Assembly (NCBI GenBank): GCA_030549845.1
Contig: JAUQQN010000001.1
Span: forward strand, 240,001-272,000
Origin: Patescibacteria group bacterium
Lineage (GTDB): Bacteria; Patescibacteriota; Minisyncoccia; UBA6257; HR35
DNA length: 32,000 nt
Direction: 5' to 3'
Positions 2,026 to 18,314 of this stretch are shown here, piece by piece. The notes under the pieces were generated by a model. The model was given only the letters and a program-made list of their open reading frames with translations, ran no database searches and was not told the origin of the DNA. Made by a program: the position numbers and the translations under genes. Numbering within the stretch: the first letter of the stretch is position 1; every line of letters begins with the position of its first letter.

Positions 2026-3354
2026 TTAAATTGAGGAATAAATTTCTTTTAGGGCTTTGATTCCCTTAAAGAACATTTTTTCATCAAAGTTTTCATTAGG
2101 TGCATGGACATTGTCGTCAGGTAAAGTAAAACCAGTTAAAATTATTGGTTTTTTATATATTCTTTGTAAAACCTCAGCAGCTGGTATAGATCCACCAGCA
2201 CGATTAAAAACAACCTTATTTCTAAAAACTCTCTCTAGAGCATTTTTTGTTTTAACAATAAATTCATTATTCAATGGAGTATAAAATGGAGCTGCTGAAC
2301 CTAAAAGTTTTAATTCCCATTTTACTCCTTTTGGTATATTTTTTTTAATAAAATTCTTTACTAGTTTGATTATTTTCTCTGGTTTTTGATATTCAATTAA
2401 TCTAAAAGAAAATTTGACGGCTGCTTCTTTAGGAATAATTGTTTTTACTCCTTCCTGAGTGTAGCCAGATATTATTCCGTTTATATCCATTGAAGGATAA
2501 ATTTTTGGTGAAAGTGAAGGTTCTTTTTTATCCAATGGATGGATTAAGTAAAGCTTAGTTTCTTTTAAGATTTCTTTTTCTTTAATACTTGCCAATCTTA
2601 GTAGCTCTTTTTCTTTTTTATCAATTTTTCTAACATCTTCATAAAATCTAGGGATTAATATCTTTCCTGTTTTTAAATCTTTCATTTTTGAAAATAAATC
2701 TGCTAAAAATTGAACTGGATTTAAAGCTAAATTTCCATAGCTCCCTGAATGTAAATCATATTCTCCAACCTTTATTTTTAATTCAAAATAAACAATACCT
2801 CTTAAAGCATAATAAATTGTTGGTACATTCTTTTTAATCATCCCAACATCCGTTAAATAAAAAACATCAACCTTTGATAAAACATTTTTTGCTTTTTTAA
2901 CATATTCTTCAAAATGAGAACTTGCTGATTCTTCTTCACCTTCAACCAGAAAAACAATATTATTTTTTAATTTATTTTCTTTAATCAATTCTTCAATTGC
3001 AAAAATATTTTGAACAATATGTCCTTTATTATCAGCAATTCCTCGACCATAAATTTTTCCATCTTTCAAAGTTAATTTAAATGGTGGTGTTTTCCATTCA
3101 TTAATTGGTTCTTCTGGTTGAACATCATAATGGCCATATATCCCGATTGTTTTTTTACCACCAATAAATCTATGAGCTAAAACCAAGGGTGGAGAGCTTT
3201 TTTCTTGAATTAATTTAACTTTAAAACCAAGAGATGAAAATTTATTTTTCAAAAATTCTGCAGCTTTTAAAATATCATTAAACCTTTCTTTTTGTGTTGA
3301 AACAGAGGGGATTGAAATAAAATCAGTTAAAAAGTTTAAAATTTCATTTTTCAT
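2026..3354 (-). CDS. M20-family dipeptidase (CNDP/Dug1-like M20 subfamily pattern)
   Basis: 442 aa. GHYDVQPEEPINEWKTPPFKLTLKDGKIYGRGIADNKG matches the metal-binding/dimerisation signature of M20 dipeptidases. Confidence 0.8.
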   Translation of the reverse strand: MKNEILNFLTDFISIPSVSTQKERFNDILKAAEFLKNKFSSLGFKVKLIQEKSSPPLVLAHRFIGGKKTIGIYGHYDVQPEEPINEWKTPPFKLTLKDGKIYGRGIADNKGHIVQNIFAIEELIKENKLKNNIVFLVEGEEESASSHFEEYVKKAKNVLSKVDVFYLTDVGMIKKNVPTIYYALRGIVYFELKIKVGEYDLHSGSYGNLALNPVQFLADLFSKMKDLKTGKILIPRFYEDVRKIDKKEKELLRLASIKEKEILKETKLYLIHPLDKKEPSLSPKIYPSMDINGIISGYTQEGVKTIIPKEAAVKFSFRLIEYQKPEKIIKLVKNFIKKNIPKGVKWELKLLGSAAPFYTPLNNEFIVKTKNALERVFRNKVVFNRAGGSIPAAEVLQRIYKKPIILTGFTLPDDNVHAPNENFDEKMFFKGIKALKEIYSSI

Positions 3355-3372
3355 AGAAAAATTATACTATTT

Positions 3373-4458
3373 TTACTTAGCAATTTGTACAACAAATTCT
3401 TTTAAGACTAAATAAAACTTATTTAAATCTTCTTTATCTATCCATTCTTTATCTGAATGATGACCTCCACCTTTAGGTCTAATTAGAATAACAGGTATAT
3501 TTTTTTCTTTAAAAAATCTAGCATCACTTGAACCATGCGAAAAGGCATAGCCTGTTTCGATTTTGAATTTCTCTTTCGCTATTTTTGAAAATAATTTTAA
3601 ATAATAATTATTTCTTTCAACTTCATAAGGAGACCCTTCTACTAAATTTTCTATTTTTATTTTTCTAAATTTTTTTAACAAATTTTTAATTCTCTTAAGG
3701 ATTTTATTTCTCTGCTTAAGATCAATATACCTTATATCAATAAAAGCTTCTGCATAATTTGAAACTTGATTTGTTGCTTCTCCTCCTATAATTTTTCCTA
3801 TGTTTAATGTATTATGCCAATGGATTTTGTTTTTGCATGGTTCTTTAGGAAAAATTTTTGCAAGATTATTCAAAAATCTTAAAAGGTTTTCAATTGCTCC
3901 TTCTCCTTCCCAAGGTCTTGAACCATGTGCTGATTTGCCGTAGCTTTTAACTTTTAAATGCCAAACACCCTTGGCTTTGATTTCGAAATTCCAATTTTGA
4001 CCTCCATCTGGCAGAAAACAGATTTTACAAGAATAACCTTTATCTAAGATGGCTTTAGTTCCTTTAAACCCACCAATTTCTTCATCAGTTGTTATCATTA
4101 TTCCTAAATCATATTTTTTTAAATCTTGATTTAGTTCTTTTAGAAGCTGTAAATAACAAGCAATAGCAAATTTCATATCATATACTCCTCTCCCCAAAAT
4201 TTTCTTTTTTTCAATTTTTAATTTAAAAAGTTCTTCTGGTCCTGGTACTACATCAAGATGGGCAGATAATAATAATTTCGGCTTTTTTGTTTTGTGAGCA
4301 GTAATAAATAAAGATGGGTAATTATCAAAATTAAATTCTTTTATAAATACAGGTAATTTGTTAATTTCTTCTTTTATCCAATTAATTGCTTTCTTATTCT
4401 CTTCTTTGTTTTGGGGAATTGTTTTAAAAGAAATTAATTTTTGTAAAATTTCTAACAT
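3373..4458 (-). CDS. M20-family peptidase/deacylase (ArgE/DapE-like)
   Basis: Motifs SAHLDVVPG, GRGVYDMKFA and TTDEEIGG. I chose the ATG at 4458 (MLEILQKLISFKT) because the longer track ORF runs upstream through the neighbour's terminator hairpin. Confidence 0.75.
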   Translation of the reverse strand: MLEILQKLISFKTIPQNKEENKKAINWIKEEINKLPVFIKEFNFDNYPSLFITAHKTKKPKLLLSAHLDVVPGPEELFKLKIEKKKILGRGVYDMKFAIACYLQLLKELNQDLKKYDLGIMITTDEEIGGFKGTKAILDKGYSCKICFLPDGGQNWNFEIKAKGVWHLKVKSYGKSAHGSRPWEGEGAIENLLRFLNNLAKIFPKEPCKNKIHWHNTLNIGKIIGGEATNQVSNYAEAFIDIRYIDLKQRNKILKRIKNLLKKFRKIKIENLVEGSPYEVERNNYYLKLFSKIAKEKFKIETGYAFSHGSSDARFFKEKNIPVILIRPKGGGHHSDKEWIDKEDLNKFYLVLKEFVVQIAK

Positions 4459-4545
4459 GATTAAGTTATGTTTTTTCTCTATTATAGACCCTTCACGACA
4501 AAAGTTGGATTCTTTGTCTTTATAAAAAATTTTAACCAAAAATAA

Positions 4546-4572
4546 GGGGCGTGGAGTTCTTAACACGCCCCC
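4546..4572 (-). terminator. intrinsic terminator of the GC-rich ligase gene
   Basis: Stem GGGGCGTG (4546-4553) pairs with CACGCCCC (4565-4572). On the minus strand it is followed by TTATTTTTGG, 14 nt after the stop at 4586. Confidence 0.55.
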
Positions 4573-4585
4573 GACTTTCTTGGAT

Positions 4586-5434
4586 TTAGTGGGTCTTCCT
4601 CTTCTCTACAAAAACACGCATCACCTCCTTTATTATTTCTTGTATCCCGTATAGAGAGGTGGAGTCAAATACCCGAATTTCGATTGTTCCTAGACTCCAC
4701 CTCGGCCGGCACCACCACCATACACATCCTTCACTCACTAAATCACCAGGCTGGGAGGGACTCTTTAGATCCACCTCCCAGCCGTTTTCTTTTTTTCTGA
4801 TAAGGCGTGGGATAGAGCGGAAATGATTCACTACATCCTCCCATGTCTGAAACCGAGACCATTGTCCTGGCTGGGCTGGTGCCCTCCTAGGATCACACCA
4901 GCCCCACCAACATCTCGCTCTGTTCTTGCTGGCATACTCCGTAAAGTTAATGTTGAAATGATTTAACAACGTCAGCCCTTCCCACGACTGTAATAAACCG
5001 GGGAAAGAAATATGGACGTGAACAGAAGAAACTAGGGCCATCCGCAGAACTCCCCACCACCTCCTACCCACCTCTTTCTCAAGGGCCCTCCAAAGAATCC
5101 TATAGCGATCCTTTGGGGCCCAGAATTTCCGAATTTCATGCAGCTTCAAATTAATTAAGTTGGCATCAACTGGTACGAAGTGGATATCCACCTCGCCCAG
5201 CCTTTTTCTGGTCTCTTTTAAGACCAGAAAGTACTTCTCACTAAGTTCCTCCCAACTGGAGGAAGGATATATAGCCCACTCAATCTGGTGCCTGCCGGCA
5301 TCAGTTTTGATGATGCCGGCTCCAGCAACCTCTAGACCCTCGCCTACAGCTTCCCATACGTCCACGGGCTCGCCATTTTTATAGACGAACCCCTCCACTT
5401 CAATCCCTACAGTTAACTCTTTCGGCCACTTCAT
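4586..5434 (-). CDS. carboxylate-amine ligase, GCS2/YbdK (glutamate-cysteine ligase family 2)-like; short and Trp-rich
   Basis: 282 aa. The motif order GIEVEGF ... SVHVHISF ... RPRWSLGTIEIRVFDS parallels the E. coli YbdK motifs GIELEMQ / QHVHVG / RPSPHFGTVEVRVMDT (recalled from memory). A perfect SD GGAGGTGA (5441-5448) lies 6 nt before the ATG. There are 19 Trp in 282 residues. Confidence 0.6.
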   Translation of the reverse strand: MKWPKELTVGIEVEGFVYKNGEPVDVWEAVGEGLEVAGAGIIKTDAGRHQIEWAIYPSSSWEELSEKYFLVLKETRKRLGEVDIHFVPVDANLINLKLHEIRKFWAPKDRYRILWRALEKEVGRRWWGVLRMALVSSVHVHISFPGLLQSWEGLTLLNHFNINFTEYASKNRARCWWGWCDPRRAPAQPGQWSRFQTWEDVVNHFRSIPRLIRKKENGWEVDLKSPSQPGDLVSEGCVWWWCRPRWSLGTIEIRVFDSTSLYGIQEIIKEVMRVFVEKRKTH

Positions 5435-5460
5435 TTTAACTCACCTCCGTTTAGGGTTCT

Positions 5461-5602
5461 TTTTAAAATTAAAAGGGCCGGGTTGGCCCCGGCTGAAGTG
5501 ATATAAAATTTTTATTTTTAAACTAAATCACCTCAGCCGGAGCACCTCGGCCCAAAATAACAAACAAAACAACTGAATTTCTTTTTGTAAGCATTGTTTG
5601 TA
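5461..5602 (-). promoter_or_regulatory. structured GC-rich leader E1: mini-ORF, 14-bp hairpin and overlapping terminator-like hairpin with T-tract
   Basis: Long hairpin 5489-5502 / 5527-5540 with one G.U pair. GC hairpin within 5475-5493, followed on the minus strand by TTTTAATTTT. A 23-codon ORF spans 5594..5523. See findings. Confidence 0.4.
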
Positions 5603-5608
5603 AATAAT

Positions 5609-5637
5609 ACTATAATCAACAAATTTATTTTTGTCAA
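5609..5637 (-). promoter_or_regulatory. sigma70-type promoter for leader E1 and the ligase gene
   Basis: Minus strand reads TTGACA (5632-5637), a 17-nt spacer, then TATAGT (5609-5614). Confidence 0.45.
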
Positions 5638-5663
5638 GGGTTTATGAAATATTTTTAACAAAT

Positions 5664-6287
5664 TTAAATAAGTGTAAGTGATTTTAAATAATTTTCTTCT
5701 ATTTTATCCCAATTTACAACATTCCACCAAGCTTGAATATATTCATTTCTTCGATTTTGATATTTCAAATAATATGCATGTTCCCAGACATCTAAACCCA
5801 TAATCGGCAAATCTCCATTCATTAAAGGATTATCTTGATTTGAAAGTGAATAAACTTTTAATTTTTTATCTGGAGTTAAAACAAACCAGGCCCAACCTGA
5901 ACCAAAATGTTTTAAGGCTGTTTCGGAAAATAAATTTTTAAAATTTTCAAATGAACCAAATGCTTCATTAATTGCTTTCAAAATTTCTCCTTGTGGCTGA
6001 CTCCCTCCTGGTTTCATAATCTCCCAAAAAAGAGTGTGATTGGCGTGACCGCCGCCATTATTTCTTACGGTTGTTCTTATTTCTTCTGGCAACTGATTTA
6101 AATTCTTTAAAATTTCTTCTAATTCTAAATTATGAAATTCTGGGTATTTTTCTAAGGCTGAATTTAGATTATTAACATAACCTTGATGATGCTTAGTGTG
6201 ATGAATTTCCATTGTCATTTTATCAATATAAGGCTCCAAGGCATCATAGGGATATGTAAGTGGCGGTAACTCATACGGATATTTCAT
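5664..6287 (-). CDS. sod: Fe/Mn superoxide dismutase
   Basis: 207 aa. Contains [14 protein letters not shown] and [15 protein letters not shown], the metal-ligand motifs of the Fe/Mn SOD family. Confidence 0.9.
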
Positions 6288-6308
6288 TTTTAAAAAAATA
6301 AATTAATT

Positions 6309-6817
6309 TTAATCGAATTTTTCAGAGTAGTATTTTAACTCATCAAACATACTTAACAAAAATTCTCTATAAGTTTCCTTTTCTTTCTCAAAATTCTGAA
6401 CATTAGAAAAATAAACAGCATTTCTTAAGGGAATCATCGAAAGTTCAATACATACTAATCTTAATTGTTCAACCATTCTTGCGCCACCTAATTGACCAAT
6501 AGAAACTCCACAAATACCAACTGGTTTATGAGCATATTCTTCATAAAAATTATCAAGCAAAAGTTTTAATTCCCCTGGAAAAGAATGATTATATTCTGGA
6601 GAAACTATAATGAAACCATTTGCTCTTTTAAAAATATCTGAAAGTTTTTTTCTTTTTACTTCATCCATTTCACCAGTAAAAGGAGAATCTAACCAATCTC
6701 GGGGTTTAATTAACTCAACTTCAAAACCATAATTTTTGCTTCTTCAAAAACAAATTCAGCAATTTTTTCTGAATTAGCTCCTCTTCTTCCTGTGCCAAGT
6801 ATGATTGGAATGTACAT
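6309..6817 (-). pseudogene. NAD(P)H-dependent FMN reductase split by a 1-nt frameshift in an A5 run
   Basis: The N-terminal frame is ATG 6817 to TAA 6710-6712 (MYIPIILGTGRRGANSEKIAEFVFEEAK...). The C-terminal frame is open from 6743 and contains SPEYNHSFPG. Adding one A at 6733-6737 gives a continuous ...EEAKNYGFEVELIKPRDW... Confidence 0.7.
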
Positions 6818-7056
6818 AAAAATATTATAAATGAAATTTTTTTGAGTTGAGGAACTAAAAATTAATTCTTACCATAAAATTCTATTTCTAAAAATACATT
6901 CTAGATTCTAAGGTCAATGATTCCCAAGTAGAGGAAATTGTAAAAGTAAAATTTTAGACTTAAGTTTTATTTTTCTTGAATTCTTAAGAAAATAAGAAAA
7001 GTAAATAAGAATTAGGGATTTTATTTGTCTTTCAATTTTAGGCCTAGAATAAAAAT

Positions 7057-7142
7057 TGGCGGAGGGGGTGGGATTCGAACCCACACGGGCTTTAAACCCA
7101 ATGGCTTTCGAGGCCATCCCATTTCCATTCTGGCACCCCTCC
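7057..7142 (-). tRNA. tRNA-Ser (anticodon CGA), CCA encoded
   Basis: Reverse complement is GGAGGGG...ATGGC-CTCGAAA-GCCAT, then a long variable arm, GTGGGTTCGAATCCCAC, CCCCTCC, G and CCA. Confidence 0.9.
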
Positions 7143-7158
7143 TTATTTAATAATTTTA

Positions 7159-7464
7159 TCACTTAGAAAGGAATTTGTAAATCTCATAAAATAAACTAGC
7201 TAAAAAACTTTTTATTTTTATCCAAATTTCAATTATATTTATCCCAAAAATGTTTTCGATTGTTTGTGGTATTTGAGAAAGGTCTATACCTAACGTATCT
7301 TTTAAAAATAAATTAAATTTTATCCAACCAAGTTTTAATGTATTTAAAAAAATATCTATATTAAAGTAAGGTTTTAACCAATTCCAAAAATTTTGTGGTA
7401 GAGCTGCAAATATCAATAAAACTATGATGACTAAAGCAATTAATCTAACTAATCTGAATATCAT
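7159..7464 (-). CDS. hypothetical small membrane protein
   Basis: 101 aa with a hydrophobic N-terminal helix (LIALVIIVLLIFAAL). Its start overlaps the gltX 3' end by 20 nt. Confidence 0.45.
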   Translation of the reverse strand: MIFRLVRLIALVIIVLLIFAALPQNFWNWLKPYFNIDIFLNTLKLGWIKFNLFLKDTLGIDLSQIPQTIENIFGINIIEIWIKIKSFLASLFYEIYKFLSK

Positions 7465-8881
7465 TTAATTTATCTATTGCTTTATTTATTAATTCTAGGC
7501 TTTTTTCTTTCCCATAAATTAACATAATATCTATCGGAGGAGGAGATGCTTCTAAGCCTGTTAAGGCTACTCTTAATGGCCAATATGTTAAACCCTTGTC
7601 TTCGCTTAAGGTATCTAAAACCTGCTTGATAAATTCATAATTAAATTTATCCTCAGGAATATTCTTTATATTTTCTCTAACATTTATTAAAGAACTTTTT
7701 ATTTGATCAAAAGTATAATCTTTCCATATTAATAGCTCTTTTGGATAATCAAATTTTTCATATAAAAACTTCATGGTTTCGAAAATTTCTTTTATAGTAT
7801 TTGCTCTTTCTTTCCCAAGTTCTATTATTTTATAAGTAATTTCTTTTGGGTATTTATTTAAGTAATCTCTTAAATATTTTAGATACTCATCAGCTAAAAT
7901 GATTTTTTCAATTTCTTGTGAGGTTTTTTTCCTCAAATAAAATTTATTTAACCAAATTAATTTTTTTGAATTAAATACTGCCGATCTTTTTTCAACGTCT
8001 TCCAAGTTAAATTCTTTGATAACCTCTTCTATACTTATAATTTCTTTCTCTCTTTTAGGATGCCAACCTAATAATACCAAAAAATTTAAGATTGCTTCTG
8101 GTAAAAAACCTTCAGCTCTATATTCTTTTATACTCTTAGCCCCGTGTCTTTTCGAAAGCTTACCTCCTGCTTCACCTAAAATCAGTGGAATATGAGCATA
8201 AATAGGTGGTTTCCAATTCATGGCTTTATAAATTAATATTTGTTTAGGGGTATTTGGTATATGTTCAGCGCCTCTTATTACATGGGTGATTCCTTGATAA
8301 TAATCATCTACAGGGGTAGCTAAATGAAATAATGGTTCATTTTCTGATTTTGCAATTACAAAATCGCCTATTAATCTTAAATCATATTTAATTTCACCTC
8401 GCAATAAATCTTTAAATGTTAAAACTTGTTCTGGCACCTTTAGTCTTATTACATAAGGCACATTTCTTGAAAGTTTCTCATTTATTTCTTCTTTTGTTAG
8501 CTTGGAGCATGTTCCATCGTATCTTGGTGGTTCGCCTTTTGTGATTTGCTCAAGTCTTTTGTTCTCTAGTTCTTCTTTTGAACAAAAACACCTATACGCC
8601 TTTCCTTTATTTAATAATTCTTCAATAACTCTTTTATAAATTTCTATTCTCTCTGACTGAAATATAGGACCTTCGTCATAATTTATACCTAACCATTGTA
8701 GGCTTTCGATTATATCATCAACAAATTCTTTTTTTGACCTCTCTCTGTCTGTATCTTCTATTCTTAAAATGAAAACTCCTTTTTGGTTTTTAGCAAAAAG
8801 AAAATTAAACAGAGCAGTTCTTGCAGATCCCAAATGTAGATATCCTGTAGGAGAAGGAGCAAATCTTGTTCTTACAACCAT
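7445..8881 (-). CDS. gltX: glutamyl-tRNA synthetase
   Basis: 478 aa. RFAPSPTGYLHLGSARTALFN is the HIGH region and KLSKRHG is the KMSKS-type loop. Confidence 0.9.
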   Translation of the reverse strand: MVVRTRFAPSPTGYLHLGSARTALFNFLFAKNQKGVFILRIEDTDRERSKKEFVDDIIESLQWLGINYDEGPIFQSERIEIYKRVIEELLNKGKAYRCFCSKEELENKRLEQITKGEPPRYDGTCSKLTKEEINEKLSRNVPYVIRLKVPEQVLTFKDLLRGEIKYDLRLIGDFVIAKSENEPLFHLATPVDDYYQGITHVIRGAEHIPNTPKQILIYKAMNWKPPIYAHIPLILGEAGGKLSKRHGAKSIKEYRAEGFLPEAILNFLVLLGWHPKREKEIISIEEVIKEFNLEDVEKRSAVFNSKKLIWLNKFYLRKKTSQEIEKIILADEYLKYLRDYLNKYPKEITYKIIELGKERANTIKEIFETMKFLYEKFDYPKELLIWKDYTFDQIKSSLINVRENIKNIPEDKFNYEFIKQVLDTLSEDKGLTYWPLRVALTGLEASPPPIDIMLIYGKEKSLELINKAIDKLNDIQIS

Positions 8882-17083: not shown

Positions 17084-17225
17084 TTTCATCAATTACTTTC
17101 TTTGTAAATTTAATATAAGGGTGCTATATCCACTTTTATTTCTCTAGCTTCTTTGGCTATATTTAGAATAAAAATAAAAGAAAAAATTCAATAACCCTCA
17201 AATCTTATCTTTCTTACTAAAATTA

Positions 17226-17254
17226 ATTATATATTAAATGTTGATAAATTTCAA
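17226..17254 (-). promoter_or_regulatory. candidate rRNA promoter
   Basis: Minus strand reads TTGAAA (17249-17254), a 17-nt spacer, then TATAAT (17226-17231). It lies about 140 nt upstream of the processing stem and immediately after the stop of the upstream gene. Confidence 0.45.
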
Positions 17255-17258
17255 GCAA

Positions 17259-18139: not shown

Positions 18140-18291
18140 TTAAATGAGTAAAATTTGTTTGGGAAATAAAAATTATAAAAAATTGTTTATTACAGCAGCC
18201 CCGGTTAAGGCTAGAGGGGGCCTATTTGGGGTTTAGTTTAATTATCAAAAATCTAAAACTCCAAATAGGCCCCTAAATAAGGGGCCTTTTT
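18140..18291 (+). ncRNA. leader E2: candidate attenuator or ~150-nt small RNA (mini-ORF, 13-15 bp antiterminator hairpin, terminator)
   Basis: A 30-codon ORF spans 18144..18236. The long stem pairs 18217-18229 with 18261-18273. The terminator stem AGGCCCC (18267-18273) / GGGGCCT (18281-18287) plus TTTTT shares its 5' arm with the long stem. Confidence 0.4.
18267..18291 (+). terminator. intrinsic terminator inside leader E2
   Basis: AGGCCCC-TAAATAA-GGGGCCT followed by TTTTT. It ends 24 nt before the ATG at 18315. Confidence 0.5.
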
Positions 18292-18314
18292 AAATTAAGT
18301 TAAGCGAAATTAAA

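Follow-up and report, generated by a model that had tools for sequence, protein, structure and literature searches.

A nested leader-peptide attenuator probably heads a ligase–peptidase operon behind sod in an AT-rich Patescibacteria genome

The short interval between a sod gene and a GC-rich ligase-like gene in the genome of a Patescibacteria group bacterium holds a promoter, a very short reading frame and a stable hairpin ending in a U tract, and raises the question of what such an arrangement does ahead of the genes that follow it. The genome (G000; 641 kb, 28% GC, completeness estimated at 99.2%) encodes DNA polymerase I, TsaE, a class A PBP and PilB, which mark it as bacterial, and its host is a member of a group noted for a very restricted biosynthetic capacity. 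The GC content of its 23S rRNA is 55%, against 28% genome-wide, a composition that suggests a heat-adapted organism growing at high temperature. The module, termed E1, lies on the minus strand of the window, that is, of the whole stretch of 32,000 nucleotides analysed here (G000:C2:240001-272000), between sod (5664-6287) and a 282-aa ORF (4586-5434). A preliminary description of this DNA had read it as a translation-coupled or ligand-controlled attenuator that might also serve as the sod terminator. Its parts, and the genes that it precedes, are the following (window coordinates).

5609-5637, minus strand: sigma-70-type promoter, TTGACA (5637-5632), 17 nt, TATAGT (5614-5609)
5523-5594, minus strand: leader mini-ORF of 23 codons plus TAG, MLTKRNSVVLFVILGRGAPAEVI; ATG at 5594, TAG at 5525-5523
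5556-5564, minus strand: predicted sensor codons 11-13, Phe-Val-Ile; probability of the terminator stem 0.4, 0.0 and 0.4 in the mask scan described below, and at least 0.9 before them
5548-5553, minus strand: A0, basal 5' strand GGGCCG, pairing with 5480-5475
5527-5546, minus strand: A1, upper 5' arm and antiterminator strand, inside the mini-ORF (codons 17-23)
5503-5526, minus strand: AT-rich loop of 24 nt, opening with the leader stop codon, its sequence not conserved
5486-5502, minus strand: B, upper 3' arm, pairing with A1, or with C through GCCGGG (5493-5488)
5475-5483, minus strand: C, final strand ahead of the U tract, pairing with A0 (untranslated state) or with B
5465-5474, minus strand: U tract TTTTAATTTT, from the terminator scan
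4586-5448, minus strand: first gene downstream, a YbdK/GCS2-like ligase of 49% GC, including its SD GGAGGTGA (5448-5441); ATG at 5434
3373-4566 and 2026-3354: two M20 peptidase genes behind the ligase, with gaps of 18-19 nt

The promoter and the mini-ORF, including its start, its length of 23 codons and its stop, were found precisely as previously described. The promoter, with 11 of 12 positions matched, is the top promoter-like site in 4000-7500, and the corresponding promoter of a metagenome contig that is 94.5% identical (L055), in which the ORF and the hairpin are likewise intact, is a perfect 12 of 12 with TATAAT as its -10 box. Sites scoring at least 11 of 12 accompany 16 of the 27 units of the family introduced below, as compared with 13 of 385 ordinary genes (within 120 nt). 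The -10 box is followed by the ATG after 7-14 nt across the units and after 14 nt in E1, whose mini-ORF has no SD. Because SD-like motifs are depleted upstream of long ORFs in this genome (4.9%, versus 9.2% at random positions), an SD-less mini-ORF is normal for it, and near-leaderless initiation is plausible. The anti-SD end of the 16S rRNA (CACCTCC and variants) was not found around C9:48950-50720.

Folding of the segment 5610-5440 gave a free energy of -60 kcal/mol, versus -35.4 ± 4.1 kcal/mol for 200 dinucleotide shuffles (z = -5.95), none of which was as stable. Both hairpins noticed earlier were recovered, namely the 14-bp helix formed by 5540-5527 with 5502-5489 and the short GC hairpin formed by 5493-5488 with 5482-5477, followed by TTTTAATTTT at 5474-5465. 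The complementarity of GGGCCG (5553-5548) to CGGCCC (5480-5475) is also real, but this pairing is a basal extension of the long hairpin rather than an alternative to it: at minimum energy, the untranslated RNA folds into a single interrupted hairpin of 26 bp (5553-5475), the base of which adjoins the U tract. Among the hairpins of the 641-kb genome screened by a GC-seeded inverted-repeat census (compact hairpins of up to 135 nt, rRNA genes left out), that of E1 is the most stable per nucleotide. The energies are -49.3 kcal/mol for the long hairpin, -31.9 kcal/mol for A1:B and -13.5 kcal/mol for B:C, and the last value, which is that of the 3' arm by itself, compares with -5.2 ± 2.2 kcal/mol in pair-shuffled controls. 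The alternative pairings are energetically competitive, and they are conserved in the family as well.

Other copies of the unit do exist. A covariance model built from E1 (R1) detects it in 18 of the 24 genomes examined within the family, at one to four copies each; 36 genomes drawn from the order's other families yielded no match, and a second model (R2) gives a picture that agrees. G000 holds four by R1, comprising E1, a second leader of the window designated E2, C9:75381-75489 and C2:174478-174571, the latter two of which first surfaced as look-alike hairpins in the inverted-repeat census. E2 is encoded on the opposite (plus) strand; it does have the same layout as E1, as had been proposed, while its match to R1 is weak (18199-18300, 31 bits, E = 1e-4). 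A 180-nt BLAST query of E1 matches itself alone in G000, and a grammar search for antiterminator/terminator units in this genome, which proved too strict, recovered E2 and the C9 unit only. An exact-pattern scan with the two arm cores through genome and metagenome collections yielded 48 loci, 46 of them chance palindromes in GC-rich genomes and the two real ones being L055 and L029, a Ca. Pacebacteria MAG with the same sequence as the same-genus genome G001. The long hairpin covaries in the family, with 19 of 26 pairs changed on both sides, 90% of the cells paired as compared with 30-50% in slid controls, and 0 of 500 shuffles matching, in an alignment whose fitting to the model somewhat favours the structure. 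The helix formed by A0 is 83% paired, with four of its six pairs double-changed, and that formed by A1 is 92.5% paired, with 15 of 20. These counts cover the pairs of the long hairpin, to which the alignment (A2) was fitted, and leave aside those of B:C, the register of which shifts by one column between members.

The reading frame is as regular a part of the unit as the hairpin. A mini-ORF of 17-37 codons is found in all 27 units, its ATG 22-48 nt ahead of the model core and its stop where the 5' arm ends or the loop begins. Since the region upstream of the core lay outside the covariance model, the 23 units that did not contribute to training can be compared with expectation: all 23 have the mini-ORF, versus 6.5 expected upon shuffling of this region, and the joint probability of about 5e-15 is overstated, the units being related and not fully independent. 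The encoded peptides have a pattern in common, without conservation of sequence, consisting of Met, a Lys/Asn-rich start, a run of 5-11 hydrophobic residues and a tail of Gly, Arg, Pro and Ala. This tail is encoded by the GC arm in reading frames that differ among the copies (PA.., AG*, RP*). In the last eight codons ahead of the arm, T occupies 73% of second codon positions, against 41% of first and 54% of third positions, a bias better explained by selection on the encoded residues than by U-richness alone. Among the orthologs of E1, the frame is retained through 3-nt in-frame indels and conservative changes of the Val/Ile type, and the position of the stop is fixed, whereas the stop codon itself varies (TAG in G000, TAA in L055 and G001, TGA in G022 and G011). 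The preliminary description had also noted that the loops of E1 and E2 both begin with TTTAGTTTAA; this sequence is not kept in the orthologs of E1, and it is the in-frame stop that is kept instead. Within the 5' arm, changes of C to U opposite G preserve pairing as the residue passes from Ala to Val to Phe.

An intrinsic terminator, composed of a GC hairpin and a U tract, stands between the leader frame and the first gene in all 27 units. The 3' arm alone folds in each of them into a 5-9-bp GC hairpin that adjoins the U tract (-7 to -17 kcal/mol), and in 25 this isolated hairpin is significantly more stable than pair-shuffled controls. The putative antiterminator A1:B and terminator B:C (also A0:C) share a strand and are mutually exclusive, an arrangement that is conserved in the family. 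As modelled, two of the folds act as terminators (the long hairpin and B:C), and one, A1:B alone, leaves the last strand free. The behaviour of these folds under a moving ribosome was computed by masking, at each codon, a footprint of 28 nt (assumed to span -15 to +12 about the A site) in an equilibrium partition function; the readout was the probability of the four bases just ahead of the U tract being paired, and 0.35 was the cut-off for loss of the terminator. In 25 of the 27 units, this probability is high at first, falls to near zero over one to four codons just before the arm, and is high again up to the stop; the exceptions are G013, which has no window below 0.35, and G021, in which the stem is weak even without a ribosome (P = 0.25). 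The codons of these windows are 70% Ile, Leu, Val, Phe or Met, and the candidate sensor codons are of mixed hydrophobic kinds with no run of a single amino acid. The window of E1 is narrow in this model, full loss of the terminator being confined to one codon. The return of the terminator with a ribosome at the stop is also common in pair-shuffled hairpins, with a mean of 0.61 as compared with 0.93 in the real ones and, for E1, 0.90 as compared with 0.96. Part of this return is due to A0 re-pairing with C, so that the measure is not specific to B:C, and B:C was therefore tested directly on the isolated 3' arm, as given above.

From the parts thus observed, their conservation, covariation and placement, and the three-state thermodynamic behaviour of the fold, we consider it probable that E1 is a nested, trp/ilv-like, ribosome-mediated transcription attenuator, placed at the head of the ligase-M20-M20 operon and terminating sod transcripts as well; of the mechanisms that draw on every conserved part, it is the simplest. 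Transcription would start about 7 nt past the -10 box (near 5602), and the nearly leaderless 23-codon frame would be translated while RNA polymerase is still moving. With no ribosome, or with a ribosome in the first 10 codons, A0 and A1 would pair with C and B, and the long hairpin at the U tract would bring about termination. A ribosome with its A site on codons 11-13 would cover A0, leaving A1:B to form alone with C free, and transcription would read through into the operon. A ribosome that has reached the stop atop the 5' arm would cover A1, whereupon B:C (or A0:C) may form and terminate transcription. The default would accordingly be termination, with read-through limited to the case of a ribosome delayed at the hydrophobic codons, as is expected when decoding of Ile, Leu, Val or Phe is slow, for example when charged tRNAs are scarce. 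From the arrangement of the parts we infer translation of the frame, stalling within it, the nature of the signal and the sign of the response. Peptidase operons would be sensible targets of such a switch in a scavenger that frees amino acids from peptides. The reading of E1 as a translation-coupled attenuator has thus withstood the examination of copies, covariation and alternative pairings, and the orthologous placement of the units agrees with it.

This placement points to the genes behind the units. In 25 of 26 units, the feature that comes next has the same orientation and lies 0-100 nt away, and the best promoter score between unit and gene averages 8.0 of 12, as compared with 10.4 upstream of the unit. 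In E1, no promoter-like site above 8 of 12 occurs from the hairpin loop to 35 nt past the end of the module, a stretch that reaches the start of the ligase. A promoter for the downstream gene hidden in the hairpin loop was considered separately and rejected, as the best sites score no better than background (7-9 of 12). At least four units have a divergent upstream gene, which indicates that the hairpin is more than the terminator of an upstream gene. The genes found behind the units are the following.

MptA/FolE2-like GTP cyclohydrolase and M19 dipeptidase, in five genomes
RibA-like GTP cyclohydrolase II and M19 dipeptidase, in five genomes
an unusual tRNA, tRNA-Ala, tRNA-Pro and infA, in two genomes
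a PfkB kinase
an MscS-like channel
GC-richer, SD-bearing orphan genes, including the ligase of E1, behind 6-7 of 26 units

The unit is kept across genera ahead of the orthologous operons that consist of a GTP cyclohydrolase gene (MptA/FolE2-like or RibA-like) and the M19 gene, the proteins of which are only 42-66% identical, and this conservation argues for a cis-regulatory role. The M20 and M19 (di)peptidases behind many units fit amino-acid scavenging, and the GTP cyclohydrolases, the tRNAs with infA and the PfkB kinase have no obvious fit to amino-acid supply.

At the E1 locus itself, the gene behind the unit varies, being the ligase in G000 and folE2-like in G001, and being affected by a deletion in L055. 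In G001, of the same genus, an orthologous mini-ORF and hairpin stand behind sod and are followed by an MptA/FolE2-like gene, with no ligase. The deletion in L055 (300-640) is a single one of 1644 bp, corresponding to window 3806-5449; it starts within the 5' UTR of the ligase and removes this gene together with two-thirds of the first M20 gene, counted from its 5' end, so that 86 codons of the latter are left as a remnant. The ligase ORF matches YbdK/GCS2 weakly and in its C-terminal part only, has a single homolog (P0002) among 5.8 billion proteins, for which a look-up by identity located no contig, and was not found in any of 60 relatives. By contrast, sod immediately precedes an E1-type unit in G000, G001 and G018, and in G022 the two are separated by about 360 nt, so that, as judged from the compared loci, sod rather than the ligase appears to be the travelling partner of E1. 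A role of E1 as the terminator of sod transcripts is plausible, because the -35 box of E1 lies only 27 nt past the sod stop and the interval holds no other terminator. The possibility that the mini-ORF is a remnant of a gene for a membrane-anchored protein, which lies behind sod in other genera, was considered and dropped, for unrelated loci carry the ORF-hairpin unit too. G022 (C3, L004) has, about 150-260 nt past sod and ahead of the E1-like unit, a further hydrophobic ORF of 21 codons, equipped with an AGGAGG SD and with a small terminator of its own.

Other explanations of the module have to be weighed against these data. Its hairpin and U tract have the textbook shape of a terminator, and E1 might merely be a constitutive, heat-adapted terminator or insulator of sod, its counterparts elsewhere serving tRNA or other upstream genes, with a promoter that belongs to the next gene and a mini-ORF that is not involved. 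The high temperature suggested by the GC content of the rRNA would call for long stems, and E1 retains -28 kcal/mol at 65 °C; moreover, no Rho RNA-binding domain was found in G000, so that intrinsic terminators must serve, and in three genomes sod is the gene directly upstream. We nevertheless regard this explanation as unlikely, as it accounts neither for a promoter that fires into a strong terminator 100 nt before its gene, nor for the ATG frame ending at the arm and the self-complementarity of the 3' arm, both of which are present in 27 of 27 units, nor for the units with a divergent upstream gene. The self-contained make-up of promoter, ORF and terminator would equally suit a stand-alone small gene encoding a short hydrophobic peptide, either a membrane peptide or one resembling a type I toxin, with incidental read-through accounting for downstream expression. 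A basic N-terminus followed by a hydrophobic run is a feature of small membrane peptides, and the frame shows signs of selection. However, the hydrophobic runs, mostly of 5-11 residues in peptides of 17-30 aa, are too short for a membrane, the C-terminal residues are set by the hairpin and read in different frames among the copies, and the changes in the arms of orthologs spare the pairing and alter the residue. A small gene would also leave aside that the genes 0-100 nt downstream are promoterless and that the linkage to orthologous genes is conserved; in addition, the promoter scan detected no promoter-like site for a type I toxin antisense RNA on the opposite strand inside E1. On balance, there is little likelihood that E1 is such a gene.

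Two further explanations appear highly improbable. The related copies at several loci, which share a conserved 5' flank and a palindromic core rich in CCGG, recall a mobile or repeat element of the REPIN/MITE type with an outward promoter, and the GC-richer, SD-bearing orphan genes behind 6-7 of the 26 units look like insertion points. Such an element would hardly be limited to one to four diverged copies per genome, each kept before orthologous genes across genera, with E1 matching itself alone in its own genome; no flanking direct or terminal repeats beyond the hairpin were noticed in an unsystematic look, and G-U pairs occur on the transcribed strand only. The persistence of a large loop (14-30 nt) in all copies, despite its destabilising the hairpin, could instead be taken to mean that the loop is the sensor of a riboswitch-like leader controlled by a ligand or a protein, which was one of the options of the preliminary description. 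This loop is the sole large unpaired region, is AT-rich and differs even between orthologs, and the comparison with Rfam gave no leader family at gathering score in the window and, in 4400-5800, no family with E up to 10 save meaningless hits to miRNA hairpins. A ligand-controlled switch thus has very little to recommend it.

The nested attenuator proposed for E1 is worth comparing with those of enteric bacteria, among which ilvGMEDA (with ilvL, multivalent for Leu, Ile and Val) and trpL are the classical leader-peptide systems. These have in common with E1 a promoter-proximal short frame and a terminator with a U tract before the first gene. The common features extend, in E1 as modelled, to an antiterminator that uses the 5' strand of the terminator and is selected by a stall at the sensor codons, and to termination when the ribosome is at the leader stop or is absent. 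In both ilvL and E1, a hydrophobic run is followed by Gly, Arg, Ala and Pro codons that form GC stems. The strands of E1 are, however, nested, forming one long hairpin (A0:C plus A1:B) when untranslated, whereas those of trpL and ilvL are in tandem with separate 1:2 and 3:4 hairpins; E1 further differs in having no SD, almost no 5' UTR and mixed sensor codons. The genes controlled also differ, those putatively governed by the E1 family being peptidases, GTP cyclohydrolases, the tRNA/infA cluster and the ligase, and not genes of amino-acid biosynthesis. In the pyrBI attenuator of Escherichia coli, transcription-translation coupling is sensitive to UTP. Like E1, it has a leader frame that enters the terminator hairpin and a U-rich stretch ahead of it, and the distance between ribosome and polymerase decides the outcome, in E1 according to the model. 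The frame of pyrBI, however, spans the whole terminator, so that a close ribosome blocks the hairpin, whereas that of E1 stops atop the 5' arm (5525-5523), short of both the loop and the 3' arm, the latter of which can fold as a terminator by itself.

Gene regulation in the CPR is almost uncharted, and the organisms have so far been beyond manipulation; a full-text literature search returned no paper on attenuators in Paceibacteria, which is weak evidence of novelty. An element of the E1 type would provide, for the Paceibacteria, a regulatory mechanism that can be recognised from sequence and tested, and the unit enables prediction of genes that may be co-regulated, such as the peptidases, the GTP cyclohydrolases and the tRNA/infA cluster. 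Its nested design is compact, with about 130 nt from the start to the U tract and no SD, and is apparently built for high temperature. Gaps annotated as terminators in small AT-rich genomes can conceal translated leaders, translation being predicted in the present case. No RelA/SpoT synthetase domain was found in G000, and we speculate that, given this and the lack of a Rho domain, the leaders may carry much of its starvation signalling. It is conceivable, although doubtful, that the nested attenuators constitute a small regulon standing in for the stringent response, in which a slowdown at hydrophobic codons would switch on the dipeptidases, the MptA/FolE2-like and RibA-like GTP cyclohydrolases, the cluster of tRNAs, infA and ribosomal proteins, and, in G000, the captured GC-rich ligase operon. 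If so, insertion behind one of the leaders would be a means by which foreign GC-rich genes become expressed.

Several minor observations were made in the same genome and in its relatives. A TTGAAA-17-TATAAT promoter is present about 150 nt upstream of the 23S rRNA gene (window 17087-17258, minus strand), where the leader ORF/hairpin unit is absent. A 460-bp island at G000:C2:154349-154810 (L070) has 49% GC and several very stable hairpins, with no tRNA, tmRNA or Rfam match. The orphan genes behind leaders (window 4586-5460 on the minus strand, L081, L086, L095, L096 and L105) have 40-50% GC and a strong SD and are not homologous to each other by BLAST; many such genes have a 5'-UTR motif composed of ACACT or ACCCT, an A-rich stretch and GGAGG, which also occurs at G000 C8:15237, 15585 and 23308. 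Finally, the first gene of the C9 unit is an odd tRNA-like sequence (G000:C9:75305-75379; L068:406-480, minus strand), starting about 15 nt past the terminator hairpin, which is called by ARAGORN as tRNA-Phe with anticodon AAA (a four-base anticodon in G001) and scored by the Rfam tRNA model at only 43.9 bits, and which is conserved in three genomes (also G001:C33 and G020:C38).
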